Translations under genes and position numbers: made by a program | Shown: positions 685-10,841 of the stretch, in pieces | How the letters are laid out: each line of letters begins with the position of its first letter | Numbering within the stretch: position 1 is the first letter of the stretch | Assembly (NCBI GenBank): GCA_027013865.1 | Contig: JALWFW010000177.1 | Span: 406-11,246, forward strand | Reading direction: 5' to 3' | DNA: 10,841 nt | DNA from: Polyangiaceae bacterium | Lineage (GTDB): Bacteria > Myxococcota_A > Polyangia > HGW-17 > JALWFW01 | The notes under the pieces: generated by a model | Told to the model about the DNA's origin: nothing | Databases searched by the model: none | The model's input: the letters and a program-made list of their open reading frames with translations, nothing else

Positions 685-1533
685 ATGTTCACCACAATGA
701 TTACTGCCATGACGCTCATGATGACCCAGCCGGTTCCGGCTGATTATCAGTCCTATTCTAGATGTGAAACAGCAGACAGTCAGTGGGGTTACGACGAATC
801 ATGTGATTCGGGGTGCGACTGCGGGTGCGAGGAGGCGGCTCCGGCAGCAGTCGGAACCACTCCTGTGGTGCGTCCCATGTCGCAACCATCTGTACCAAAG
901 GATCTGGCAACACCAGAGAACCATTTTGAACAGTCCCTGGACACTTCTCTTTTGACCCTGGACACTGCCAAGGCACTTCCCAGGGATGTCATGGTCTTTG
1001 GTACCAACTTCTATATAGTCCCTTCATTGAGAGCGGGTTTGGGTTATGGACTCGAGGCCGGAGTCACCATGTTCGGCGTATATCCCATGTTCACTCTCAA
1101 GAAGGAGATCATAAGCACCGATTCCCTCGTGGTGTCGGGTTCAGGCGCCGCCCTTATTGCCGATGATGGTGAAGGCCTGATGTTCGCGGGCCTCAAGTCT
1201 CAATTGAGTGCCGGACCGCTGAACCTTTACGGTGATATTTACTTCGGGGTGCCACTGAAGGAGACTGATTCCTCATCCAGTACCATCAAGTTGGCGAGAC
1301 TCGGGGCCAAGGCCAGGCTGACTCCCACCCTCTCCCTTCTGGGTGAGGTCTGGAGTGCCTCGGGCAACCTTGCCATGGAGGACGGTGTGATTGCACTGAT
1401 GGGCATGAGGTTCACCTGGTATGTGGCTTCCAAACCCCGTTATGTGGATGTTTTCATGGTTTCTCACATAGATGAGTATGGCTCCACGGACTATCTACCC
1501 ATGCTCATGATGAACTATGGCCTGACCTTCTGA
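685..1533 (+). CDS. Putative outer-membrane beta-barrel protein with an N-terminal Cys6 cluster (C-x12-C-x3-C-x-C-x-C)
   Basis: Strong RBS GAGGAGGAG 5 nt upstream of the ATG. Hydrophobic N-terminus (possible signal peptide, although there is no basic n-region). Amphipathic beta-strand alternation throughout the C-terminal ~200 aa and a terminal ...NYGLTF (C-terminal Phe OMP signature). No family recognised by eye. Confidence 0.7.
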   Translation: MFTTMITAMTLMMTQPVPADYQSYSRCETADSQWGYDESCDSGCDCGCEEAAPAAVGTTPVVRPMSQPSVPKDLATPENHFEQSLDTSLLTLDTAKALPRDVMVFGTNFYIVPSLRAGLGYGLEAGVTMFGVYPMFTLKKEIISTDSLVVSGSGAALIADDGEGLMFAGLKSQLSAGPLNLYGDIYFGVPLKETDSSSSTIKLARLGAKARLTPTLSLLGEVWSASGNLAMEDGVIALMGMRFTWYVASKPRYVDVFMVSHIDEYGSTDYLPMLMMNYGLTF

Positions 1534-1555: not shown

Positions 1556-2371
1556 TTATAGACTGAAAGGTGGAATGAAAAGGGTGTTGCCGTCTATGTG
1601 TACGTCTGCCCCAAGGACAACCGGGTGGTTTTCGGGTCCGTGTCCTGCAGGAAATCCGTACAGTACTGGAACTTCAGGCAGCAACGAGGTTACTAGGGCT
1701 GCTACATCCCGCTCGTCCAGTCCAGAAAACCGGCCGAGCACCACAGCCAGGGCTCTGTCTAAACCAGAACACCTTATCAGTTGCACCAAGGCGCGGTCTA
1801 TGCGGTACATGGGTTCGCCCACGTCCTCCAGGATGACGATGTAGCCGCTCAAATCTGGAGAGGCTTCAGTTCCACACATGGATGCCAGTACGGTCAGATT
1901 GCCTGCTGCTGCAGGACCTTGGACGCGGATTTCTTCCCCGTACAGTCGGTATGAGCGGGCAGGCATGTAGCCATCATCGAGCAGCATGGCAGTAAGGGCT
2001 CGGGAAGTACTGTCTAGACGTGGGAACTGGGTCACCACGGGTCCGTGGATGGCAGTGTGTCCGTTTGCGTGCCAGGCAAAGAGCAGGGCCGTGACATCAG
2101 AAAATCCCAGGAGCGCAGCCGATGGAGTTATGTGGTGGACTATGCGTGTAGCACCGTAACCACCGCGTGCTGCCCACAGAAGATCTGCGTATTCGGCTGC
2201 CTGTTCGAGGAGGCGTATCCTCGTGGCATCATCGGCAGCCAGGTAACTACACGGGCCTGAGGGCGGATCGGATACCTCGTGAAACACGGGTTCGCCTCCC
2301 CACTGCCTTAGTCCCTCTGCCACTTTTTCAGGATCTGCTGCCCCTGACGGATATACGATCGCTATGCGCAT
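1556..2371 (-). CDS. ldcA: LD-carboxypeptidase (peptidase S66, LdcA/MccF family)
   Basis: N-terminal IAIVYPSGA and the nucleophile motif GFSDVT, then the Glu in VILEDVGE and the His in FPAGHGPEN, give a Ser-Glu-His triad at the usual positions over the right length (271 aa). No obvious SD. Lies 21 nt after the upstream gene. Confidence 0.85.
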   Translation of the reverse strand: MRIAIVYPSGAADPEKVAEGLRQWGGEPVFHEVSDPPSGPCSYLAADDATRIRLLEQAAEYADLLWAARGGYGATRIVHHITPSAALLGFSDVTALLFAWHANGHTAIHGPVVTQFPRLDSTSRALTAMLLDDGYMPARSYRLYGEEIRVQGPAAAGNLTVLASMCGTEASPDLSGYIVILEDVGEPMYRIDRALVQLIRCSGLDRALAVVLGRFSGLDERDVAALVTSLLPEVPVLYGFPAGHGPENHPVVLGADVHIDGNTLFIPPFSL

Positions 2372-2392
2372 CAGATGTGTAACTATAGGAAA

Positions 2393-3412
2393 TCATTCGG
2401 TTTCTGTGGATTTCTTCTTTTTGCGACTTTTGCGTTTTTTACGGCTTTTGCGTTTTTTCTTTTCTCCAGAGGTGTCTGCAGGTTTGTCGCCGGATCCATC
2501 AGATTTCTCAGAGGACTCTTCAGAGTTATGGACTGAAGCGTCTTTCTGATCTTCTTCTGGGTGAGACGAGGGCTGCCCAGCATCTATCATGGAGGCCTCT
2601 TCCTCTACCTGTTCTGATGAAGTGGAGCCTGCGTCCCCAGGCTGATCATCTGAGGTCTGTGTATCGGATGGTTCCTCTTCAGTAGTGTCCTGGGTCATCT
2701 CACTGTCGGTATCCTGTGACAGTGCGCTACCTGGCTTGGCTTCAGTCTGTTCGGCGGGTTCAGTCTGTTCGGCGGGTTCAGTCTGTTCGGCGGGTTCAGT
2801 CTGTTCGGCGGGTTCAGTCTGTTCGGCGGGTTCAGTCTGTTCGGCGGGTTCAGTCTGTTCGGTGGCTTCAGTCTGTTCGGCGGGTTCAGTCTGTTCGGCG
2901 GGTTCAGTCTGTTCGGCGGGTTCGCCGCCTATGTCGGGGCTGATATCGTTTTCATCGGAAACAGACTGTGCTGCCATCTCTTCAGGCTGATCAGAAGTCA
3001 CGTCGTCTCCGGAGAGTTCAGTGGCCTCTTCAGCAGCGGGTTCCGGTTCATCTTGCGTTGTGGTAGCCGGGGATATGTCACTTTCAGAGGTATCTTCCGT
3101 ATGTTCATCCTGTAAGGTCTGGACATCTGAGTCTCCTGCTTCCAGCCATCTTTCGAAGACGTCCAGATGGCTATCACTCATCTCGTCCAGTCTCAGGAAC
3201 ATACCTGGGGCCTGATCGCCGATAGCTTCCCTCGATGTGCCCACTATCACCATGCAGTCAATGGTCTCTTCTCCCCTGGTTATTGTCATGGAGAGGCTGG
3301 TTCCCACAGGCATGGGGTCTTTGACCTGTACCTCGAACCCATCTAGGGATATGGCTTCCAGAGGTAGGTCACTGTATAGCGTTATGTCATGGTAGGTAAT
3401 AGATGCTTTCAT
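2393..3412 (-). CDS. Chimeric protein: non-canonical PilZ-like N-terminal beta-barrel domain, a highly acidic disordered region with ~10x PAEQTE tandem repeats, and a polybasic C-terminal tail (KKKRKSRKKRKSRKKKK)
   Basis: ATG at 3410-3412 is preceded by GAGAGGTG (preferred over the in-frame GTG at 3421). The first ~95 aa, with AISLDG and a ...GMFLRLDEMSDSHLDVFERWL C-terminal end, resemble a PilZ domain. They lack the RxxxR and D/NxSxxG c-di-GMP motifs. The remainder is D/E/T/S/Q-rich low complexity ending in a K/R run. Confidence 0.75.
   Translation of the reverse strand: MKASITYHDITLYSDLPLEAISLDGFEVQVKDPMPVGTSLSMTITRGEETIDCMVIVGTSREAIGDQAPGMFLRLDEMSDSHLDVFERWLEAGDSDVQTLQDEHTEDTSESDISPATTTQDEPEPAAEEATELSGDDVTSDQPEEMAAQSVSDENDISPDIGGEPAEQTEPAEQTEPAEQTEATEQTEPAEQTEPAEQTEPAEQTEPAEQTEPAEQTEPAEQTEAKPGSALSQDTDSEMTQDTTEEEPSDTQTSDDQPGDAGSTSSEQVEEEASMIDAGQPSSHPEEDQKDASVHNSEESSEKSDGSGDKPADTSGEKKKRKSRKKRKSRKKKKSTETE
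2738..2924. repeat. Near-perfect 18-bp tandem repeat (unit GGGTTCAGTCTGTTCGGC), 10 full copies plus a partial one; in frame, encoding (PAEQTE)n on the minus strand
   Basis: Read directly. Units run 2738-2755, 2756-2773 and so on to 2900-2917, with a partial unit at 2918-2924. Only three units carry single-base variants (units 1 and 8 have GGC at their 5' end, unit 7 ends GGT). Confidence 0.95.
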
Positions 3413-3453
3413 GGTGTGCACCTCTCAAAAGGAGACAGTGGGTAAAGGATGCC

Positions 3454-4776
3454 TTAGACCGGCTGAGCCGAACCGCAGTAGGGACAGAACTTCATGCCTG
3501 GCATGATTTCCTTGCCACAGGTTACGCAGTGGGGAGCTGCCTGGGCATGTTGGGTAGCTCCACAGAAAGGACAGAATTTCGATCCTTCCGGAATCTCCTT
3601 ACCGCAGTTCACGCATTTGACTTTGGGAAGTTCTGATAGTGGATTGCCGCAGTTCGGGCAGAACTTGAGTCCTGGACCCACAGGATAACCACATTTCGGA
3701 CATGCAGAAGAGCCCGGCGCCTGCTGTGGTGGAGTTTGCGTTGCTCCTGGTGCTGCCATGGTTGCCGCTGCTCCGGCTGCTGCTCCGGCTGCCATCTGTG
3801 CCTGATGAGGCTGTTGGGGCATGGCCCCTGCGGCTCCCTGGGGTGGCGGTGGCGGGGGGTATCCTCCAACACCTGCTCCCTGTGGCGGATATCCCTGCTG
3901 TCCGTACATTGCCTGCATTCCGGGATTCATGGACTGCGCCACCATTCCTGGCATCATGAATCCCATGCCAAGCCCCATGCCCATGCCCATGCCTGCACCT
4001 GCGGTTCCGTCTCCACCCGAGTTCTTGGCCAGATCTCGCATTGCATAGGCCATCTGGTACTGCTGGAATGCTCCCATGGAGTTTTCGAACAGCCCCATTC
4101 CACTGCGCTCGTCGATTTTCTTCTGTACTTCCGGCGGCGGGGTAATTGCTCCTATACGCAGATCTTCCAATTCGAGGCCGTTTTTGGCGAAGTCATCGGC
4201 AAGACGGGCCTTGGTGGCAGTGGCTATCTCATCGAAGAGGCCGGCCAGCTCCATGATACTCTTCATGATCTCGCCAATTACGTCGATGAGACGCTGCACC
4301 ACGGCATCCCTTGCCCAATTTGCCATGTCACTGGCCGTGTAGATGCGGCTGCTCTTGAGACGTTTGTTCACGAACAGAACCGGATCCACTATGCGGTATG
4401 TCAGGGAACCGAAAGAGCGCAACCTTACGACTCCCATCATGGAATCCCGCATGGGGATGGGTTCCTTGGTACCCCACTTCTGGTCGTCGATGAGTCCCAC
4501 GTCAACGAAGACCACTTCGGCCTTGAAAGGAGTTCTACCGTCGAAGGCCGCGCCGATGACCTTGCCGAGCAAGGGTAGGTTGCCTGTGGACAGGGTATAG
4601 CGACCTGGACCGAAGGTGTCCAGTGCCTGACCGCCCCTGTAGAAGATTGCCACCTGTCCTTCCCTGACGATGAGCTGGGAACCCCACTTTATGTCAGCCT
4701 CGCCGTCCTGGGGTATGCGGACGGCCATGACCTCTCGCGAATCATCTAGATATTCTATGAGATCGAGTAATGGCAT
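3454..4776 (-). CDS. SPFH/Band-7 family (Band_7_1-like) protein with a Gly/Met/Pro-rich linker and three C-terminal zinc ribbons
   Basis: RBS AAAGGAG 7 nt upstream of the ATG. The N-terminal ~250 aa (LIVREGQVAIFYRGGQALDTFGPGRY...) is typical of Band_7_1 SPFH proteins. It is followed by GMGMGMGLGMGFMMPGM / PPPPPP low complexity and then 3x [CxxCG-x8-10-KFCPxCG]. The (CATGCC)n DNA at 3963-3992 encodes the GM run. Confidence 0.85.
   Translation of the reverse strand: MPLLDLIEYLDDSREVMAVRIPQDGEADIKWGSQLIVREGQVAIFYRGGQALDTFGPGRYTLSTGNLPLLGKVIGAAFDGRTPFKAEVVFVDVGLIDDQKWGTKEPIPMRDSMMGVVRLRSFGSLTYRIVDPVLFVNKRLKSSRIYTASDMANWARDAVVQRLIDVIGEIMKSIMELAGLFDEIATATKARLADDFAKNGLELEDLRIGAITPPPEVQKKIDERSGMGLFENSMGAFQQYQMAYAMRDLAKNSGGDGTAGAGMGMGMGLGMGFMMPGMVAQSMNPGMQAMYGQQGYPPQGAGVGGYPPPPPPQGAAGAMPQQPHQAQMAAGAAAGAAATMAAPGATQTPPQQAPGSSACPKCGYPVGPGLKFCPNCGNPLSELPKVKCVNCGKEIPEGSKFCPFCGATQHAQAAPHCVTCGKEIMPGMKFCPYCGSAQPV
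3963..3992. repeat. Short hexamer repeat (CATGCC)n inside the SPFH gene, encoding the GMGMGMG linker
   Basis: Three perfect tandem CATGCC units at 3975-3992 plus a degenerate copy at 3963-3968. Confidence 0.7.
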
Positions 4777-4779
4777 GGA

Positions 4780-5262
4780 TTACTCCTTTCCTTCGCCGGA
4801 GCTCAGAATGTGTTCCCTGTCGTTCAGTGCCTGATCTATTTCTCTCAGAACGGAGGAGAAATTGATGAAGGCCATTTTCGGATCGCCACTAGCCATGGCG
4901 CTTTCGATGGCATCCATGGCATCGAAGGCCTTCTGGCGCAGTGTTTCGAGTTGCTGATCGTATTCTTCCACCTTGCGCAGTGCGTCTATTTTGGATGTGA
5001 AGAGACCGGGTGCGAAACCCATGTTGGACCAGTTGAGGCGGTCCCTAACTTTCCTGAGAAGCATGGTTGCCTGTTCTGCGTCATTGAGAAGCTGCATCTT
5101 GGTGAGATCACGTGAAATCATGACCTTTACCTGCTCCATGCGTGAATGAAGTTCGCCTAGTTTGGTACTCATGTATTCACGCAGAGCCCGATCCGTATTG
5201 CGACTCTCCTCACGTTGTCTGTAACCTTTGTAACCGGGAATTATATAATCCAAGATAGCCAT
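4780..5262 (-). CDS. Hypothetical cytoplasmic protein (~160 aa), helical/coiled-coil character, no transmembrane segment
   Basis: The ORF stop lies 3 nt before the SPFH start. GAGGAG sits 6 nt upstream of the ATG at 5262; the ATG at 5268 has no spacing to the SD and is rejected. Charged heptad-like segments (LRKVEEYDQQLETLRQKAFDAMDAIE). No family recognised. Confidence 0.65.
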   Translation of the reverse strand: MAILDYIIPGYKGYRQREESRNTDRALREYMSTKLGELHSRMEQVKVMISRDLTKMQLLNDAEQATMLLRKVRDRLNWSNMGFAPGLFTSKIDALRKVEEYDQQLETLRQKAFDAMDAIESAMASGDPKMAFINFSSVLREIDQALNDREHILSSGEGKE

Positions 5263-5277
5263 GCTCATCTCCTCTTA

Positions 5278-5622
5278 TCAGTCGTCTTCCGATTCTTCCT
5301 TTTTACCGGCTGATGCCCTGCGGTAGCCGGAGTATACGAGTCCTGCGATCACTAGGAGCAGCAATGGCCACGTACGGCCTAGACCTGCCAGCCCTGATGA
5401 GGACAAGAACCAGAAGAAGAATAGCACGGACCAAAAAGCCCAGAATTCTTTGGTGAAGGTCACCAAGGCCAGGGATCCGAACAGCGCAGTACCCACGAGG
5501 GGCCACAGTCTACTGACGGAACTGATGCCGAAAGTGACAGGAAGGGCAAAGATCAGTCCTGCTGTGATGAGGGTGGTCAGTACAGGAATGAGTACTTTGT
5601 TTTTGGAAGATTTGTCACCCAT
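5278..5622 (-). CDS. Small integral membrane protein (114 aa, ~4 predicted TM helices, acidic C-terminal tail)
   Basis: RBS CGAGGT 8 nt upstream. Starts 11 nt after the OmpA-family stop. Four hydrophobic 18-22 aa segments (VLIPVLTTLITAGLIFALPVTF, LWPLVGTALFGSLALVTF, FWAFWSVLFFFWFL..., WPLLLLVIAGLVYSGY). Confidence 0.7.
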   Translation of the reverse strand: MGDKSSKNKVLIPVLTTLITAGLIFALPVTFGISSVSRLWPLVGTALFGSLALVTFTKEFWAFWSVLFFFWFLSSSGLAGLGRTWPLLLLVIAGLVYSGYRRASAGKKEESEDD

Positions 5623-5633
5623 GGTGGACCTCG

Positions 5634-7886
5634 TTATTTGGCAAGTTTGAGTATGTGGAATTCAACCCGTCTGTTTTTGGCGCGGGCACGCTCCGAGATG
5701 TTGGGATAAATGGGTCTGGAACGACCGTATCCCTTGGTCCTGAGACGTGATGACTCGACACCCTTGGATATGAGGTAGGCACGCACTGCATCCGCACGCT
5801 TCTGGGACAGACGTCTGTTGTACTCATCGCTGCCCTTGTTGTCGGTGTGACCGTCTATGCGCACCAGTTTGATCTCTGGATGCTCTATGAGGAATGCCGC
5901 GATCTCGTCGAGCAGGAGTTTAGACCTTTCGGTCAGTCGTGCCGTATTGCGTTTGAAGTAGATCTTGCGTCTGAGAAGAATACGCGTTTTGCGGCGGTTG
6001 AGTTTGATGTGAGACTTGCGCGGCTTGCGCTTGAGGGATACCGTGACCTTTGGAGCCGGACAGGATTTGATGTCTAATTCCTTTGATACTGTAAGATATT
6101 TCCGTGATTTGATGACCACACGGTAGGTACCTGTGGGAACGGTGACGTTCTTACCGCTGGCAGGAATGGTCTCTTCCATGGAGATGTCTTTGCCTGCACT
6201 GTCCTTGCCTCTGATTGTGATAGAGGCTTTGATCTTCCGGTTTTTCTTGGCATCACGGATTTCGAAGGCCACGTCGCAGCCCTGGGCAGCCTTGTGTTTG
6301 AGTACAAGTGATACAGAGGCCTTTTTGCCGGGTTCGACCCTGACTTCCGTAGTGGCCTGCTCGAATCCCTTCTTGTATGCGATCACCTTGTATGAACCGG
6401 CCTTCAGGCTGCATGTCGAGAAACTGCCGCTCTCGTCGGCCAGTACGTCACTCATGCCAACTCCCGGAAGTGAGACTGCAGCACCAGGAACCGGATTACC
6501 CTTATCGTCCTTGATGAGACCAACGATGGCCCCAGTGACCGGGGCAGCCGCCTTTGCAGGCTCCTTGACCACTTTGATGATCTCTTTGGGTTTGCACACA
6601 GGGCAATTGCATGCAGGACACTGGGCGGAAGACGAGGTTTGAGAAGAAGGCACGAAAGTGATGGAGGCCAGGACATTGTATGGAGGAAGTGATGGAGCGA
6701 CCTTGTACCCTGGCTGCGAAATATTGATGTCTGCTCCTAGTCCTATGCTCACTTCCGGCGTGACCATGGCATTCAGGCCCAGGGTGAGTACCTGGCTTGT
6801 ATTGCCGTTTTTGGCAGCTTCGGTATCTACTGACAGATACTGCTCGATGTTACTGAGATTGGAATCGTCATCCACGAAGTAAATGAGGGAATACTCCATG
6901 AATGGGGTGAGATATACGGGACTTCCGGCCACCATGAACCTGTGGGTGTAGTCTGCGGCCAGCCGTAGCAGCGCTCTCGAAGGCATGACGCCCATGGCGT
7001 AACGGTGGACTATATATGTATAGAAGAGTTCTGGAAGGACGTCGGACTCTGCGTTGGCCCAGTCAGGAGAATCAAGCAGAGAATAGGAATTGTCCTGGAT
7101 ATAACCGGCATTGAGATGAAGTCCCACAGGGATACCCGCAGACTGTTTCAGACTGTAGGAGGCCAGGAGCATGGCAGCTATGGACGTCGCTCCAATGTCG
7201 GGAGCTATGTCGCCGACACCTGAATAAAGTCTGACGAAGCCCTCGAAACCTATATCAAGGCCAGGTGCCGCGTCTATGGGCATCGCCCACTTGCCGCCAA
7301 GCATGAAATCACCCATGGAACGTTGAACCTCTGGCTCGTAGGTGTCTGCTTCCCGGGTACGCTCATTGCGGTTGCTGGATGACAGGAGTGCCAGTTGCAG
7401 TTCGATGGAAGGGTATACCCGAAATGCCATGTGAAGGCCACCTGCCAGTCTGGTATTGGTCTCGTCATGGCCTGCAATGAGGAAATCCGACTGACGGAAC
7501 CATTCGAGGTGTAGTCCCATGGCGACACGATGGTTCAGGTCGGTAAGTACCGTGTGCATCAGTCCTGTTCCAAGGCCTGATGTCAGAGGAATCATGTGAG
7601 CGTGTTCGGTGTTGGGACGTGTACCGGATGCAGGTGGTAGGTCGGCAGTGGCCGGTTCTGCGGAGGGGGTTCTTTCGGGCTGAGTCTCGGGTTTGGGGCT
7701 GGTGACCTGAGGAGATGTCGTCACGGTAGCCTGAGGCTGAGTCTCGGGGGCTGTCCCGTTGCCCGGATCCGATGCCTGAGAAGTTGCCTTGTTCTGCTGT
7801 GCCTGTGTAGGCAGCGCCATGGCCAGTGCGATAACCATGGTTGCCATCGCCACTACAGAATTTCTGACCCGCGTCCTTACGTACAT
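5634..7886 (-). CDS. OmpA-family outer-membrane protein (750 aa): signal peptide, Pro/Thr-rich linker, ~330-aa beta-barrel-like region ending ...ASITF, CPACNCPVC cluster, two CarboxypepD_reg-like Ig-fold domains, C-terminal OmpA/MotB peptidoglycan-binding domain
   Basis: ATG at 7884-7886 with GGGAGG 6 nt upstream (preferred over the TTG at 7913). Signal-peptide-like YVRTRVRNSVVAMATMVIALAMALPTQAQQ. OmpA_C motifs are conserved (IDGHTDNKGSDEYNRRLSQKRADAVRAYL...NRRVEF). Two ~80-aa GxY...G.Y.V prealbumin-like repeats. Confidence 0.85.
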   Translation of the reverse strand: MYVRTRVRNSVVAMATMVIALAMALPTQAQQNKATSQASDPGNGTAPETQPQATVTTSPQVTSPKPETQPERTPSAEPATADLPPASGTRPNTEHAHMIPLTSGLGTGLMHTVLTDLNHRVAMGLHLEWFRQSDFLIAGHDETNTRLAGGLHMAFRVYPSIELQLALLSSSNRNERTREADTYEPEVQRSMGDFMLGGKWAMPIDAAPGLDIGFEGFVRLYSGVGDIAPDIGATSIAAMLLASYSLKQSAGIPVGLHLNAGYIQDNSYSLLDSPDWANAESDVLPELFYTYIVHRYAMGVMPSRALLRLAADYTHRFMVAGSPVYLTPFMEYSLIYFVDDDSNLSNIEQYLSVDTEAAKNGNTSQVLTLGLNAMVTPEVSIGLGADINISQPGYKVAPSLPPYNVLASITFVPSSQTSSSAQCPACNCPVCKPKEIIKVVKEPAKAAAPVTGAIVGLIKDDKGNPVPGAAVSLPGVGMSDVLADESGSFSTCSLKAGSYKVIAYKKGFEQATTEVRVEPGKKASVSLVLKHKAAQGCDVAFEIRDAKKNRKIKASITIRGKDSAGKDISMEETIPASGKNVTVPTGTYRVVIKSRKYLTVSKELDIKSCPAPKVTVSLKRKPRKSHIKLNRRKTRILLRRKIYFKRNTARLTERSKLLLDEIAAFLIEHPEIKLVRIDGHTDNKGSDEYNRRLSQKRADAVRAYLISKGVESSRLRTKGYGRSRPIYPNISERARAKNRRVEFHILKLAK

Positions 7887-7911
7887 ATCCGCCTCCCTTA
7901 CTGATGGTGAC

Positions 7912-7940
7912 AATATATAAGAAACCTCGTGCGGTTTCCA
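7912..7940 (-). promoter_or_regulatory. Candidate sigma-70-type promoter of the six-gene envelope operon: -35 TGGAAA (7935-7940), 17-nt spacer, -10 TATATT (7912-7917)
   Basis: Read on the minus strand as TGGAAAccgcacgaggtttcttaTATATT. Lies 26 nt upstream of the ATG (7884-7886) and immediately upstream of the GGGAGG RBS. A T6 run (7945-7950) follows the rluA stop. Confidence 0.3.
7921..7938. promoter_or_regulatory. Perfect palindrome GAAACC-N6-GGTTTC overlapping the -35 element and spacer of the operon promoter; candidate repressor operator
   Basis: 6-bp perfect inverted arms read directly. The position over -35 and the spacer is typical for a repressor site. The half-sites have a GAAC/GTTC flavour, but the spacing is N8 between GAAAC cores. 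Confidence 0.35.
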
Positions 7941-7968: not shown

Positions 7969-8895
7969 TTACGTCAGATACTCTGCTGAAACGAAGGGAA
8001 CGAAGGATTCGGGAATGAGGGGATCGGTCACTTCCATGCGGCTGCGTTTCTGGCGTACCGGTTCTGGGGTATCGAAGCGTATGGTTCGAGCCCACAACAG
8101 GAAGTGGTCGTCTCCGTTGTCCAGTGGCTCTCCTCCATAAAGTAAGTCGCCCATGATGGGATGGCCTTCATGGGCCAACTGTACCCTCACCTGGTGGCGT
8201 CTGCCGAAGCGCGTGACCACCCTGACCACTGACCATTCCTGTGTATGACGCAGGGGAATGACCAGAGACACTGCCCGCTTACCTCGACCATGGGGACCGC
8301 TCTCGTAAGAAACCCGATCCCTGCCCGTGGTCATGATGTGTCCTTCGGCCCAGAAACGTTCTGTCAGGCTTCCGCGCACTACGGCAATGTATTCCTTCTC
8401 CACCTGGTGGTTGGCGAAACTTTGACGCAGGCGGTGTGCAGCTTCCTTGTCCAGGCCCACTAGGAGCAGACCACAGGTCCCGTTGTCTAGGCGGTTTAGT
8501 ATTCCTGCTTCCCGGGGCGGGTCGGCCTGAATGTCAGGGAATAGGGCCAGCACTCCACCGGCTGCCGTGGGACAGTCTTCCGGAAGTATGGGCATGGTGG
8601 GCAGGCCATGGGGTTTTCTCATTACGGCCCACCTCTCCGCACGTTGCAGGAGTTCGACAGTGTCAGGGCAGGGTTTGGGAAACCATTCGTCATCGCGAGG
8701 TGGAATCGACAGCGTGAGCTCTACGACACTTCCCTGGGACATACGGTCACCGAACGACAGGGTACGGCTGCCCAGACGTACACCTCCTGCTGAAAGGAAA
8801 GACTTCCACTGTCTTCTCGTGCGTCCCGGATACAGCGTGTCCAGGATTTTCTCAATTCTCCATCCGTGCCACTGGGAATCTATTGATAGCTTCAT
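7969..8895 (-). CDS. RluA-family 23S rRNA pseudouridine synthase (RluD/RluC-like) with an N-terminal S4-like domain
   Basis: Catalytic-Asp motif NRLDNGTCGLLLVG (HRLDxxTSG-like), KEYIAVVRG, and VRVQLAHEGHPIMGDLLYGG at the C-terminus. 308 aa. Confidence 0.85.
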   Translation of the reverse strand: MKLSIDSQWHGWRIEKILDTLYPGRTRRQWKSFLSAGGVRLGSRTLSFGDRMSQGSVVELTLSIPPRDDEWFPKPCPDTVELLQRAERWAVMRKPHGLPTMPILPEDCPTAAGGVLALFPDIQADPPREAGILNRLDNGTCGLLLVGLDKEAAHRLRQSFANHQVEKEYIAVVRGSLTERFWAEGHIMTTGRDRVSYESGPHGRGKRAVSLVIPLRHTQEWSVVRVVTRFGRRHQVRVQLAHEGHPIMGDLLYGGEPLDNGDDHFLLWARTIRFDTPEPVRQKRSRMEVTDPLIPESFVPFVSAEYLT

Positions 8896-8942: not shown

Positions 8943-9530
8943 TCAGTCATAGAACGGTTCGGGTGGCGGTGGTGCTGGCTGAGCACTTCCATCATCCTGT
9001 TCGCTGCCGTCATCCTGCTGGATGGGCTGCGGAACTATGGGCGGAGCTGCCGGAGCCGGTGGACGTACACCGAAACCGGTGTCGGATTCAGGAGACTTGT
9101 CCTGGATGGCATTTCGATGGTGTGCGGTTCCGTGAGCTACTTTGCGTCTGAGTCGCCTTCTGTGTGGTTTCCTCGAAGCTGGCCTCCTGACTGAACAGCG
9201 GAAGGCCATGCCGGAAACGAAAATCTCGAGGAACTGACCTTCTCGTTTGGCCCCGTACGTGTTTACGACCACGACGTTGGCACCCAAATTGAAGGCTTTG
9301 TTCCGGGCATCGGTAAGCGCTGCCTCCCAGATTGCCTCCTTGGAAGAGGTCCCCCGCGCAACTCCCTTTATTTGATCAGTGGCTGTACACCCGCTGCCAG
9401 GGGATGTCTTCATGAGAACACGGATATTCTCACTTCCTGGCACGGGTCTTGGCATGTGGGCCTCCGGCATCCCCGTGCATGCTGAAAGACCCAGAAATAC
9501 GATGACTGCTGTGATGCTGTAAGGCTTCAT
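8943..9530 (-). CDS. Lipoprotein (lipobox LSAC) with a YbjQ/UPF0145-like domain and a polybasic, Pro-rich C-terminal tail
   Basis: RBS AAGGAG 7 nt upstream. N-terminus MKPYSITAVIVFLGLSAC. The segment ...ARNKAFNLGANVVVVNTYGAKREGQFLEIFVSGMAF resembles the YbjQ LGADAVVGI...MVSVSGTAV core. The tail is RRPASRKPHRRRLRRK followed by PPAPAAPPIVPQP...PPPPEPFYD. Confidence 0.7.
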   Translation of the reverse strand: MKPYSITAVIVFLGLSACTGMPEAHMPRPVPGSENIRVLMKTSPGSGCTATDQIKGVARGTSSKEAIWEAALTDARNKAFNLGANVVVVNTYGAKREGQFLEIFVSGMAFRCSVRRPASRKPHRRRLRRKVAHGTAHHRNAIQDKSPESDTGFGVRPPAPAAPPIVPQPIQQDDGSEQDDGSAQPAPPPPEPFYD

Positions 9531-9583: not shown

Positions 9584-10060
9584 TCACAGACGCATGTCTC
9601 TTATTATTGCCGCCACGGTGCCCACGGCCTCGCCGGAGTCAAAGGAAAAACGCCTGCCGCTGCGGTACATGCGGTAGCCTGAATCGAGCTCTTTGGCCAC
9701 CACTATGAGATCTCCCGGTTTGAAAGGGCCTAGAGCTTCATCCATCTCCACTGCGAAAAATTCGCCTTCTCCTGTGTAGGATGCATCTACTGTTATGTAC
9801 CTTACGAGATGGCCGCTACGGGTATAAAGTGGGATGGACAGTGCCTGGGTCACAGGCACCAGGGAACGGGCGATTCCCTTTTCTCTCTTGAGATATCCTT
9901 TCTCCACCAGTTGGTTCACATGAAAGCTCACGGCGTTGGTGGACTTGAAGTTGAGCTCTTGGCAGATTTCCCTGTATGACGGCGCGTATCCGTGGCTTTT
10001 GAAGTATTTTTCGATGAATCGTAGTACTTCGTTCTGACGTGGAGTAAGCCCGTCTGCCAT
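9584..10060 (-). CDS. LexA-like transcriptional repressor (158 aa): LexA-type winged-helix DNA-binding domain plus a short, divergent C-terminal domain
   Basis: ATG at 10058-10060 with AAGGAGG 7 nt upstream. N-terminus MADGLTPRQNEVLRFIEKYFKSHGYAPSYREICQELNFKSTNAVSFHVNQLVEKGYLKREKGIARSL matches the LexA_DNA_bind pattern. The C-terminal 88 aa contain GDLIVVAK (LexA GDLLAVHK-like) but no GxSM Ser and no Ala-Gly cleavage site by eye. The 391-aa ORF in the track is an out-of-frame extension over the peptidase gene. Confidence 0.7.
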   Translation of the reverse strand: MADGLTPRQNEVLRFIEKYFKSHGYAPSYREICQELNFKSTNAVSFHVNQLVEKGYLKREKGIARSLVPVTQALSIPLYTRSGHLVRYITVDASYTGEGEFFAVEMDEALGPFKPGDLIVVAKELDSGYRMYRSGRRFSFDSGEAVGTVAAIIRDMRL

Positions 10061-10841
10061 TATTTGCCCTCCTTGCTCCACGCTTTGCCCCGCACCATGT
10101 CGGTTATGTCCCATGGTGACGGGCCACCGCCCAGATAGCGGTGGAACCAGTCGAGATGAGCTGCGTAATAAAGAGGCATGGATTTGACGAAGTTGGGCCA
10201 GTGACCGTCGTTGGGGAAGATGATGATTCTTGCGGGAATGCCACGTCTGCGCAGTGCCGTAAACAGCTGCATGCTCTGGGTGTATGACACGCGGTAGTCC
10301 TTCTCTCCGGTGATGATGAGGGTTGGGGTCTTCATGTTCTTGACATAGGTGGACGGAGACCACTTCCTGTAGCCTTCGGGGTTGTCCCATGGCGTGCCGC
10401 CCACGTCCCACTCGGGGAACCACAGCTCCTCGGTTACGCCGTACTTGGATGGCAGGTCGAACACGCCCATCATGGAGGCGATGGCCTTGAACCTGTCGGT
10501 GTGGCCCAAAAGCCAGTTCATCATGTAGCCTCCGTATGACCAGCCCATGGCTCCCATGCGGTTGGGATCCACGTAGGGCAGAGAGGCCAGATAGTCGGTG
10601 ACCTTCATCACGTCCTCGTAGACCTTGCCTCCCCAGTCTTTGGAGATGGCGGCTGTGTACTGCTGTCCGTATCCAGTGGAACCGTGGGGATTTGGGAACG
10701 CCACCACGTATCCTGCGCCCGGATATACCTGCCAGTCTCCTCTGAAGGAATCGGACCACTGTCCCTGGGGACCTCCGTGAACGTTGAGGATGAGCGGATA
10801 TTTCCTGCCAGGCGTAAATCCGTGGGGCTTTACTATGAATA
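10060..10841 (-). CDS. S9-family serine peptidase (prolyl oligopeptidase / acylaminoacyl-peptidase type), C-terminal catalytic domain; the 5' end lies beyond the window
   Basis: The reading frame is open to the window edge (…KPHGFTPGRKYPLILNVHGGPQGQWSDSF…). Nucleophile elbow GWSYGGY, Asp in ITGEKDYRV and His in PNDGHWP form the catalytic triad. The TAA stop at 10060-10062 overlaps the LexA-like ATG (TAATG). Confidence 0.9.
   Translation of the reverse strand, partial: FIVKPHGFTPGRKYPLILNVHGGPQGQWSDSFRGDWQVYPGAGYVVAFPNPHGSTGYGQQYTAAISKDWGGKVYEDVMKVTDYLASLPYVDPNRMGAMGWSYGGYMMNWLLGHTDRFKAIASMMGVFDLPSKYGVTEELWFPEWDVGGTPWDNPEGYRKWSPSTYVKNMKTPTLIITGEKDYRVSYTQSMQLFTALRRRGIPARIIIFPNDGHWPNFVKSMPLYYAAHLDWFHRYLGGGPSPWDITDMVRGKAWSKEGK

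Follow-up and report, generated by a model that had tools for sequence, protein, structure and literature searches.

A compact cluster of six minus-strand genes, encoded in a 10,841-nucleotide stretch of DNA from a Polyangiaceae bacterium (contig JALWFW010000177.1 of assembly GCA_027013865.1; hereafter the window), is organized around two adjacent genes, one for a four-helix cytoplasmic protein (cc, for coiled coil) and one for a soluble SPFH protein of the Band_7_1 type with C-terminal zinc ribbons, the type represented by Bacillus YdjI. The pair is a widespread unit that crosses phylum boundaries. It is nested within a triad, in which a four-transmembrane (4TM) protein is encoded ahead of it, and, in one Polyangia-type clade, within a conserved order of six genes (hereafter the hexad). 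We propose, with a probability of about 0.5, that the cluster specifies a membrane scaffold on the cytoplasmic face comparable to that of YdjG, YdjH, and YdjI (also named SamGHI), which in the Polyangia-type clade would be coupled to the cell wall. The roles of bacterial SPFH proteins are poorly understood, above all those of the soluble YdjI type; in Bacillus, YdjI joins a membrane sensor to PspA, and this is to our knowledge the only studied example of the type. The genes are as follows, in order of transcription, with lengths in amino acids (aa) and the basis of each assignment in brackets:

5634..7886, minus strand: OmpA-like envelope protein, 750 aa (Pfam and NCBIfam, hydropathy, N-domain alignment)
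5278..5622, minus strand: four-TM inner-membrane protein (4TM), 114 aa (hydropathy, family alignment)
4780..5262, minus strand: four-helix cytoplasmic protein (cc), 160 aa (alignments, profile search, AlphaFold2 [AF2] model)
3454..4776, minus strand: soluble Band_7_1 (YdjI-type) SPFH protein, 440 aa (Pfam, hydropathy, CxxC motifs)
2393..3412, minus strand: PilZ-like/acidic/polybasic protein (ACID), 339 aa (family alignment, weak PilZ matches, composition)
1556..2371, minus strand: S66 LD-carboxypeptidase (LdcA-like), 271 aa (Pfam, Pseudomonas aeruginosa LdcA alignment, hydropathy)

A preliminary description of this DNA, made without database searches, had reported six compact minus-strand genes separated by 3 to 41 nucleotides (nt). 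All six open reading frames (ORFs) are indeed present with the starts that it gave, spanning 1556-7886 of a window sequence free of Ns, and the intergenic gaps measure, in transcription order, 11, 15, 3, 41, and 21 nt. Its statement that most of the genes carry their own Shine-Dalgarno (SD) site also holds, as a GGAG-type site lies 6 to 9 nt 5' of the start codon in five of the six; inspection of the junction sequence found none ahead of the LdcA start. ATG 7886 is favored as the start of the OmpA gene because a strong SD site, AAGGGAGG, precedes it, and ATG 5262, not 5268, as that of the cc gene because the family alignment begins at MA(I/V)LDY. The domain calls of that description are mostly correct, with OmpA_C, Band_7_1, the zinc ribbons, and S66 all backed by Pfam or NCBIfam; no Pfam family is assigned to genes 2, 3, and 5 (4TM, cc, and ACID), and comparisons with Pfam, NCBIfam, and PADLOC do not place the small proteins in unrelated well-known pathways. 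Hydropathy analysis detects four hydrophobic segments in the 4TM protein, a single signal-like one in the OmpA-like protein, and none in the other four products. That the products together span the envelope, as had been suggested, is what these localization signals predict, and the prediction comes from those signals only.

The cc-SPFH/zinc-ribbon pair

The SPFH protein matches Band_7_1 (PF13421) with 166.6 bits against a cutoff of 24. Its SPFH domain (residues 26-228) is followed by a low-complexity linker rich in G, M, P, and Q (residues 250-355) and by three C-terminal zinc ribbons, which are recognizable both as six CxxC motifs and through zinc-ribbon Pfam matches; having no hydrophobic or TM segment, the protein is soluble by hydropathy. 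A comparison with the PDB yields no solved relative by sequence. The combination of an SPFH domain with zinc ribbons is common to more than 2,400 homologs, and YdjI itself consists of an SPFH domain, a region of low complexity, and a zinc finger at the C terminus (PMC8581546; PMC11237479); hence, the view that fusion of the zinc ribbons to the SPFH protein distinguishes this cluster from its B. subtilis counterpart has to be given up.

The cc protein belongs to a family whose alignments display two invariant motifs, the N-terminal MAxLDYxIPGYKGYR and KVRDRLRxxNxGF, which in the wider family take the forms IPG(Y/F)xGY...RExRRxADK and D-R-x-R-(F/Y)-A-x-Y-G-(Y/F). An exhaustive profile search recovers 1,095 representatives of 50%-identity clusters at E<=1e-3, 475 of them at E<=1e-10, with lengths mostly of 165-180 aa. 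None of the family members matches Pfam, and all fall below the cutoff of the NCBIfam model NF047596 ("LIMLP_15305 family," a name without a function). The AF2 model of cc (mean confidence score, pLDDT, of 89) resembles ESCRT-III/Vipp1 at the level of the hairpin only. Among publications searched under Band_7_1, COG4260, PF13421, LIMLP_15305, and SPFH/zinc-ribbon neighborhoods, none was found to describe the cc family or the six-gene cluster. Some members, of 330-435 aa, have long disordered C-terminal tails rich in G, S, T, and P, and in one metagenomic protein (P0201, 258 aa) cc is fused to a preceding P/T/Q-rich linker and N-terminal zinc ribbon, which mirror those of the SPFH partner.

The linkage of the two genes is evident in both directions. 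Metagenome contigs were scanned with a distant cc subgroup, and loci with at least 300 nt downstream were counted; a Band_7_1 SPFH gene is immediately 3' of cc in 66 of these 69 loci, all of which had been picked by cc homology alone. Conversely, cc is directly upstream in all five distant SPFH/zinc-ribbon loci picked by SPFH homology alone (E of 1e-41 to 1e-54 for the upstream genes), among them a Coatesbacteria genome and a "Candidatus Alcyoniella" genome. One metagenome contig (L113) codes for a Band_7_1 homolog that has neither zinc ribbons nor an upstream cc gene; from this single case, the presence of cc may go together with that of the zinc ribbons.

The gene preceding cc, by comparison, varies: it codes for a LiaI/LiaF-like 4TM protein in Myxococcota and in one further locus (L030), for a protein with two TM segments, a helix-turn-helix-like region, and a zinc ribbon in 14-16 other loci, and for a double-zinc-ribbon protein in four loci. 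That different small membrane proteins or zinc-ribbon proteins take this place is in keeping with a variable membrane anchor. No homologs were recovered with a 4TM profile among 80 distant loci carrying the cc-SPFH pair, which makes the 4TM protein a lineage-restricted partner. In a high-GC genome (L028, 7105-9570), two zinc-ribbon proteins are encoded after the pair, one of them YdjG-like in outline with a TM segment at its C terminus, and after these comes a 201-aa protein of unknown family.

Triad, hexad, and the lineage-specific partners

Loci for comparison were taken from the contigs of graded homologs and from a scan of one genome per GTDB species with a 19-sequence cc alignment, which yielded 20 Myxococcota loci. 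Every one of the 20 Myxococcota genome loci that had sufficient sequence contains the 4TM-cc-SPFH triad, and so does L030. Traced with tblastn and motif searches, the six genes of the hexad are colinear in a metagenome contig (L007) and in 12 species-representative genomes, namely L008-L018 and L027, of which L009 and L015 are interrupted by contig ends. Across the hexad loci, GC content ranges from 0.39 to 0.70; cc and SPFH are 51-59% and 55-72% identical, respectively, to their window counterparts, and the OmpA-like, ACID, and LdcA-like proteins only 25-40%. Thus, the six-gene neighborhood put forward in the preliminary description is conserved as such in a single clade; the universal core is the cc-SPFH/zinc-ribbon pair, followed by the triad, and the OmpA-like, ACID, and S66 additions are limited to the Polyangia-type clade. 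A sister clade (L004/L005/L025, L006, and L019-L024) has the triad only, succeeded by a PlsC-type acyltransferase and an NAD-dependent epimerase, neighbors that hint at a lipid link. The same clade encodes a Cys-rich acidic secreted protein after these two enzymes; a few kilobases upstream of the triad, L004/L005/L025 and L006 also have genes for a DksA-like protein and for a canonical, stand-alone PilZ protein.

Ten of the hexad loci other than the window share their flanks, with an ABC ATPase on the upstream side and, on the downstream side, a CHAT protease, a biotin ligase, and an oxaloacetate decarboxylase. Only the window differs on both sides: its upstream neighbor is an RluA-family gene, its downstream neighbor is a convergent 282-aa ORF, and the block common to it and to the other hexad loci extends exactly from OmpA to LdcA. 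One possibility, which we hold to be appreciable if clearly the lesser one, is that only the triad, or even only the pair, is functional and that the OmpA, ACID, and LdcA genes are neighbors retained by vertical synteny or operon hitchhikers with independent roles. The triad or pair is found among entirely different neighbors in the sister clade and in other phyla, the ten loci just mentioned conserve clearly unrelated flanking genes across more than 15 kb, and a further promoter-like site (2410-2382) is situated immediately before the LdcA gene, the one gene without an SD site, all of which would suit such an arrangement. It accounts less readily for the window, where the flanks are rearranged on both sides and yet the six genes keep their order and their narrow gaps, for the survival of this order through the above range of GC content and through divergence down to 25-40% identity in the three additional proteins, and for the ACID family, whose members were seen only within this cluster in searches of related loci.

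The 4TM protein, encoded two genes upstream of the SPFH gene in a position conserved across Myxococcota, is an internal duplication of two hairpins, with W40 and W85-P86 invariant in the family alignment. LiaF-TM (PF22570) is matched by 8 of the 13 family members (best E of 0.0022) and LiaI-LiaF-like_TM1 (PF18917) by 7 of them (best E of 0.003), all below threshold; the window protein itself matches neither at E up to 1. Ravi et al. (2024, PMC11237479) define the LiaI-LiaF-TM domain as one that has four TM segments and acts as a partner in PSP systems.

In the OmpA-like protein, a signal peptide (hydrophobic segment at residues 7-29) precedes a P/T/Q-rich linker, a 314-aa N-domain, a CarboxypepD_reg domain, a PEGA-like sandwich, and OmpA_C. 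The last of these is secure by score (PF00691, 88.6 bits against a cutoff of 27.2) and by the motif TD..G....N..LS..RA..V in the family alignment. Of the two Ig-like domains described earlier, the first is a clear beta-sandwich (CarboxypepD_reg, 56.6 bits against 32.3), and the second gives only a weak PEGA match (E of 0.008). The earlier call of an outer-membrane protein stands for OmpA_C and the signal-like segment and is less secure for the barrel, which has no family match; the N-domain is a possible outer-membrane barrel, with a weak OMP_b-brl match in 2 of 11 homologs (E of 0.018).

The ACID protein comprises an N-domain of ~95 aa with PilZ-like features, an acidic, disordered linker of ~220 aa (31% D+E), and a polybasic C-terminal tail, KKRKSRKKRKSRKKKK. 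Because 12 genomes encode proteins of this architecture, whose N-domain has a P(L/M)PVAT motif, we consider ACID a real gene despite the repeat that it contains:

2741..2923, minus strand: 18-nt tandem repeat of 10.2 copies, encoding PAEQTE, within the acidic linker (TRF)

The copy number of this repeat is uncertain, since a 99.9% identical ENA scaffold from the same population (L001) has ~100 Ns in place of window positions 2814-2921; the gene caller missed the ACID gene on that scaffold. Relatives lack the PAEQTE repeat and yet keep the acidic composition. A search with the full-length protein was dominated by the low-complexity repeat and gave three irrelevant matches. A second 18-nt repeat (window 2418-2458) encodes the polybasic tail.

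As for the N-domain, three weak but concordant lines suggest a PilZ-type fold. Seven of the 12 family members weakly match TIGR02266 (best E of 3.5e-4; 20.7 bits against a cutoff of 68.7) and four match PilZ (PF07238; best E of 0.018); hhalign places the domain on the PilZ core in the DxSxxG...P.G register (E of 0.02-0.08); and a poor AF2 single-sequence model (pLDDT 52) has PilZ domains as its top Foldseek matches (E of 0.2-2). Such signals, together with the stand-alone canonical PilZ genes of L004 and L006, situated ~3 kb upstream of the triad, could point to an envelope module under the control of cyclic di-GMP, with the PilZ-like protein as the second-messenger receptor that switches the SPFH scaffold. 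We give this the least credence of the explanations considered here. The N-domain begins ~18 residues ahead of the DxSxxG-equivalent position, with neither RxxxR nor an Arg-rich N-terminal segment in the alignment, the position itself is degenerate (the window has AISLDG, and most relatives have LSMENA), and all PilZ scores lie far below the family cutoffs. With RxxxR missing and DxSxxG degenerate, the earlier suggestion of a second-messenger-type adaptor is unlikely.

The final gene codes for a predicted cytoplasmic enzyme of the S66 family. Both S66 domains score above their cutoffs (PF02016, 50.9 bits; PF17676, 89.7 bits), and the protein aligns with P. aeruginosa LdcA (1ZRS/1ZL0, E of 2e-27) such that the catalytic motifs GFSD, LEDVGE, and GHG, which make up the Ser-Glu-His triad, are intact relative to 1ZRS. 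It thereby resembles the LdcA enzymes of Escherichia coli and P. aeruginosa in fold, triad, and cytoplasmic location; unlike them, it is ~40 residues shorter and scores far below the NCBIfam equivalog NF008424 (muramoyl-tetrapeptide carboxypeptidase), at 92.1 bits against a cutoff of 378. No signal peptide is detectable by hydropathy, and its homology is to the cytoplasmic recycling enzyme LdcA; the peptidoglycan peptide-trimming enzyme of the preliminary description is therefore not a periplasmic one. We know of no operon in which LdcA is linked to an SPFH module.

The LdcA gene is directly followed, across a short gap or with an overlap, by a gene for a CHAT (caspase-like) protease of ~520-530 aa in ten of the related loci (L002, L003, L007, L010, L012, L014, L016, L017, L018, and L027); neither the window nor its contig (L001) has this gene. 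This neighbor, the inclusion of the immunity enzyme MccF in the S66 family and among the PDB matches, and the scores of OmpA_C against ZorB models might bring to mind a conflict or programmed-death system, in which a membrane- or SPFH-based sensor of envelope damage by phage or toxin would trigger the S66 peptidase and, in relatives, the CHAT protease. We regard this as highly improbable. PADLOC returns only generic MotB/OmpA_C similarity (ZorB) and a 15-bit ZorG match for cc; the chromosomal position is stable, with housekeeping flanks across very divergent genomes, unlike that of defense islands; the CHAT gene is missing from the window itself; and the cc-SPFH pair occurs in ~1,100 sequence clusters, mostly without effectors of this kind.

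Known systems and a proposed role

The B. subtilis pspA-ydjGHI (samGHI) operon, named as the nearest analogy in the preliminary description, is upheld as the closest studied analog; it has the same Band_7_1 type of SPFH protein. There, formation of YdjI membrane foci requires the membrane proteins YdjG and YdjH, YdjI recruits PspA, and loss of YdjG or YdjH mislocalizes cell wall synthesis (PMC8581546; bioRxiv 10.64898/2026.02.06.704340); SamGHI has been described as a membrane stress-sensor complex (bioRxiv 10.64898/2026.02.06.704340). The parallels extend to a soluble SPFH protein with a low-complexity linker and C-terminal zinc ribbon(s), to the placement of its gene right after genes for small membrane and helical partners, which it would be expected to need for recruitment to the membrane, and to a proposed link with cell wall integrity. 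In contrast to that operon, the cluster has three zinc ribbons instead of one, has OmpA-like, PilZ-like, and S66 genes in addition, and lacks a PspA gene; further, YdjG combines a zinc ribbon with NTF2-like and TM regions and YdjH has a TPM domain, whereas the partners here are the unrelated 4TM and cc proteins.

Other systems provide more partial parallels. As LiaI anchors LiaH in the Lia system (PMC11237479), a small 4TM protein here adjoins a soluble helical one; however, the Pfam matches are all below threshold, and LiaH/PspA, a Toastrack domain, and a LiaRS two-component system are all missing from the cluster. As PspA was found neither in the window nor in the inspected loci, this is neither a psp nor a lia operon. 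In SPFH-NfeD operons (stomatin, flotillin, and YqfA types; Hinderhofer et al. 2009, PMC2636767), an SPFH gene is likewise accompanied by a dedicated conserved partner, but here the partner is not NfeD, and the SPFH protein has neither a TM anchor nor the long C-terminal coiled coil that builds HflK/C or flotillin cages. The partners in the cluster are unrelated to YdjG, YdjH, or NfeD. Finally, archaeal ESCRT-associated SPFH, coiled-coil, and zinc-ribbon proteins (Makarova et al. 2024, PMC11188069) also place a zinc-ribbon SPFH protein in a membrane-remodeling neighborhood, although their lineage and partners are different and ESCRT genes are absent here.

The sequences establish what the genes are, how closely they are packed, and how their order is conserved at nested levels, and they give a predicted localization of the products. 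From these comparisons we infer physical interactions, an order of recruitment, a role in stress, and a coupling to the cell wall along the following lines. The LiaI/LiaF-like 4TM protein would reside in the inner membrane, with the four-helix cc protein as an obligate partner or adaptor, and the two would recruit the soluble SPFH/zinc-ribbon protein to the membrane as YdjG and YdjH recruit YdjI. SPFH oligomers might then arrange a stress-sensing or repair patch at the membrane. In the Polyangia-type clade, the module would be co-transcribed with the OmpA-like, ACID, and S66 genes: the OmpA-like protein is likely to serve as a tether between the outer membrane and peptidoglycan, the N-domain of ACID probably binds protein and its polybasic tail probably binds anionic membrane, and the cytoplasmic LD-carboxypeptidase would be of the peptidoglycan-recycling type. 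Hence, the hexad most likely ties surveillance of envelope and peptidoglycan integrity to a membrane scaffold.

Several observations weigh against this proposal. Neither the window nor the gene tables of the inspected loci contain a gene for PspA/ESCRT-III (PspA_IM30), although a pspA gene might lie elsewhere in the genome. The sister clade keeps the triad beside unrelated neighbors; as the hexad loci share housekeeping flanks, much of the conservation of the hexad could be lineage synteny; and the boundaries of the block rest on a single contrast, that provided by the window. At the level of individual proteins, the cc model has no specific fold match, being a generic and uninformative four-helix bundle; the likeness of the 4TM protein to LiaI/LiaF-TM, being below threshold, weakly suggests a resemblance and not membership; the PilZ-type signals of ACID are likewise below threshold; and profile searches give no usable Pfam or PDB match for the conserved 314-aa N-domain of the OmpA-like protein.

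The proposed scaffold is of interest at two levels. The more general lead is the cross-phylum pair, in which cc looks like a dedicated, near-obligate family of SPFH partners with ~1,100 sequence clusters and no Pfam model, and the loci taken together point to a modular rule whereby the cc-SPFH pair is supplemented by a lineage-specific membrane anchor. The six-gene myxobacterial version, in turn, gives rise to a concrete hypothesis on the way a scaffold of this kind might be wired to peptidoglycan in a diderm cell. A bolder extension, which we put forward tentatively and think rather unlikely, is that cc and SPFH/zinc-ribbon proteins form an unrecognized two-protein scaffold across phyla, with cc supplying in trans the helical adaptor or wall missing from Band_7_1 proteins and with small membrane anchors specific to each lineage; its Polyangia-type form would be a trans-envelope complex physically coupling the outer-membrane/peptidoglycan tether, an inner-membrane microdomain, and peptide recycling.

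Cluster boundaries and neighboring genes

Upstream of the OmpA gene, two overlapping features had been read as a candidate promoter with a palindromic operator:

7912..7940, minus strand: promoter-like hexamers TGGAAA-17-TATATT (consensus scan)
7921-7938: inverted repeat GAAACC-N6-GGTTTC overlapping the promoter-like hexamers (inverted-repeat search)

This reading is weakened by the frequency of promoter-like sites, three in 8.3 kb where 4.6 are expected by chance, and by the position of the inverted repeat, which sits 30 nt past the stop codon of the RluA-family gene and also scores as terminator-like, with a predicted RNA fold at 7912-7940 of -15.7 kcal/mol (z of -2.0). The site could be a promoter with an operator or, equally, the terminator of the upstream gene. 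The palindrome does not fit a Geobacter-type LexA box. No terminator-like sites occur within the five gaps of the cluster. The annotated genes from ~10.7 kb to 1.5 kb are all on the minus strand and the RluA-family pseudouridine synthase gene (7969-8895, minus strand) is only 82 nt 5' of the OmpA gene; therefore, the sequence alone leaves the upstream operon boundary unfixed. In none of the related loci was an RluA-family gene seen close to the cluster.

On the downstream side, the convergent ORF (685-1533, plus strand) ends 22 nt from the LdcA stop and encodes a 282-aa protein without a family match, with a Cys-rich N-terminal stretch (CDSGCDCGCEE) and a terminus (...NYGLTF) reminiscent of the end of an outer-membrane barrel. 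Toward the other end of the window, the small product of a gene at ~9584-10060 (minus strand) contains a LexA DNA-binding domain (E of 2e-21), and an S24 peptidase domain was not detected in it; its start appears to be adjacent to the stop of a peptidase S9 gene (10060-10707, toward the window end). Between it and the RluA-family gene, a gene at 8943-9530 (minus strand) has a DUF4156 lipoprotein-like product that carries, at its C terminus, a long extension rich in Pro and Arg.

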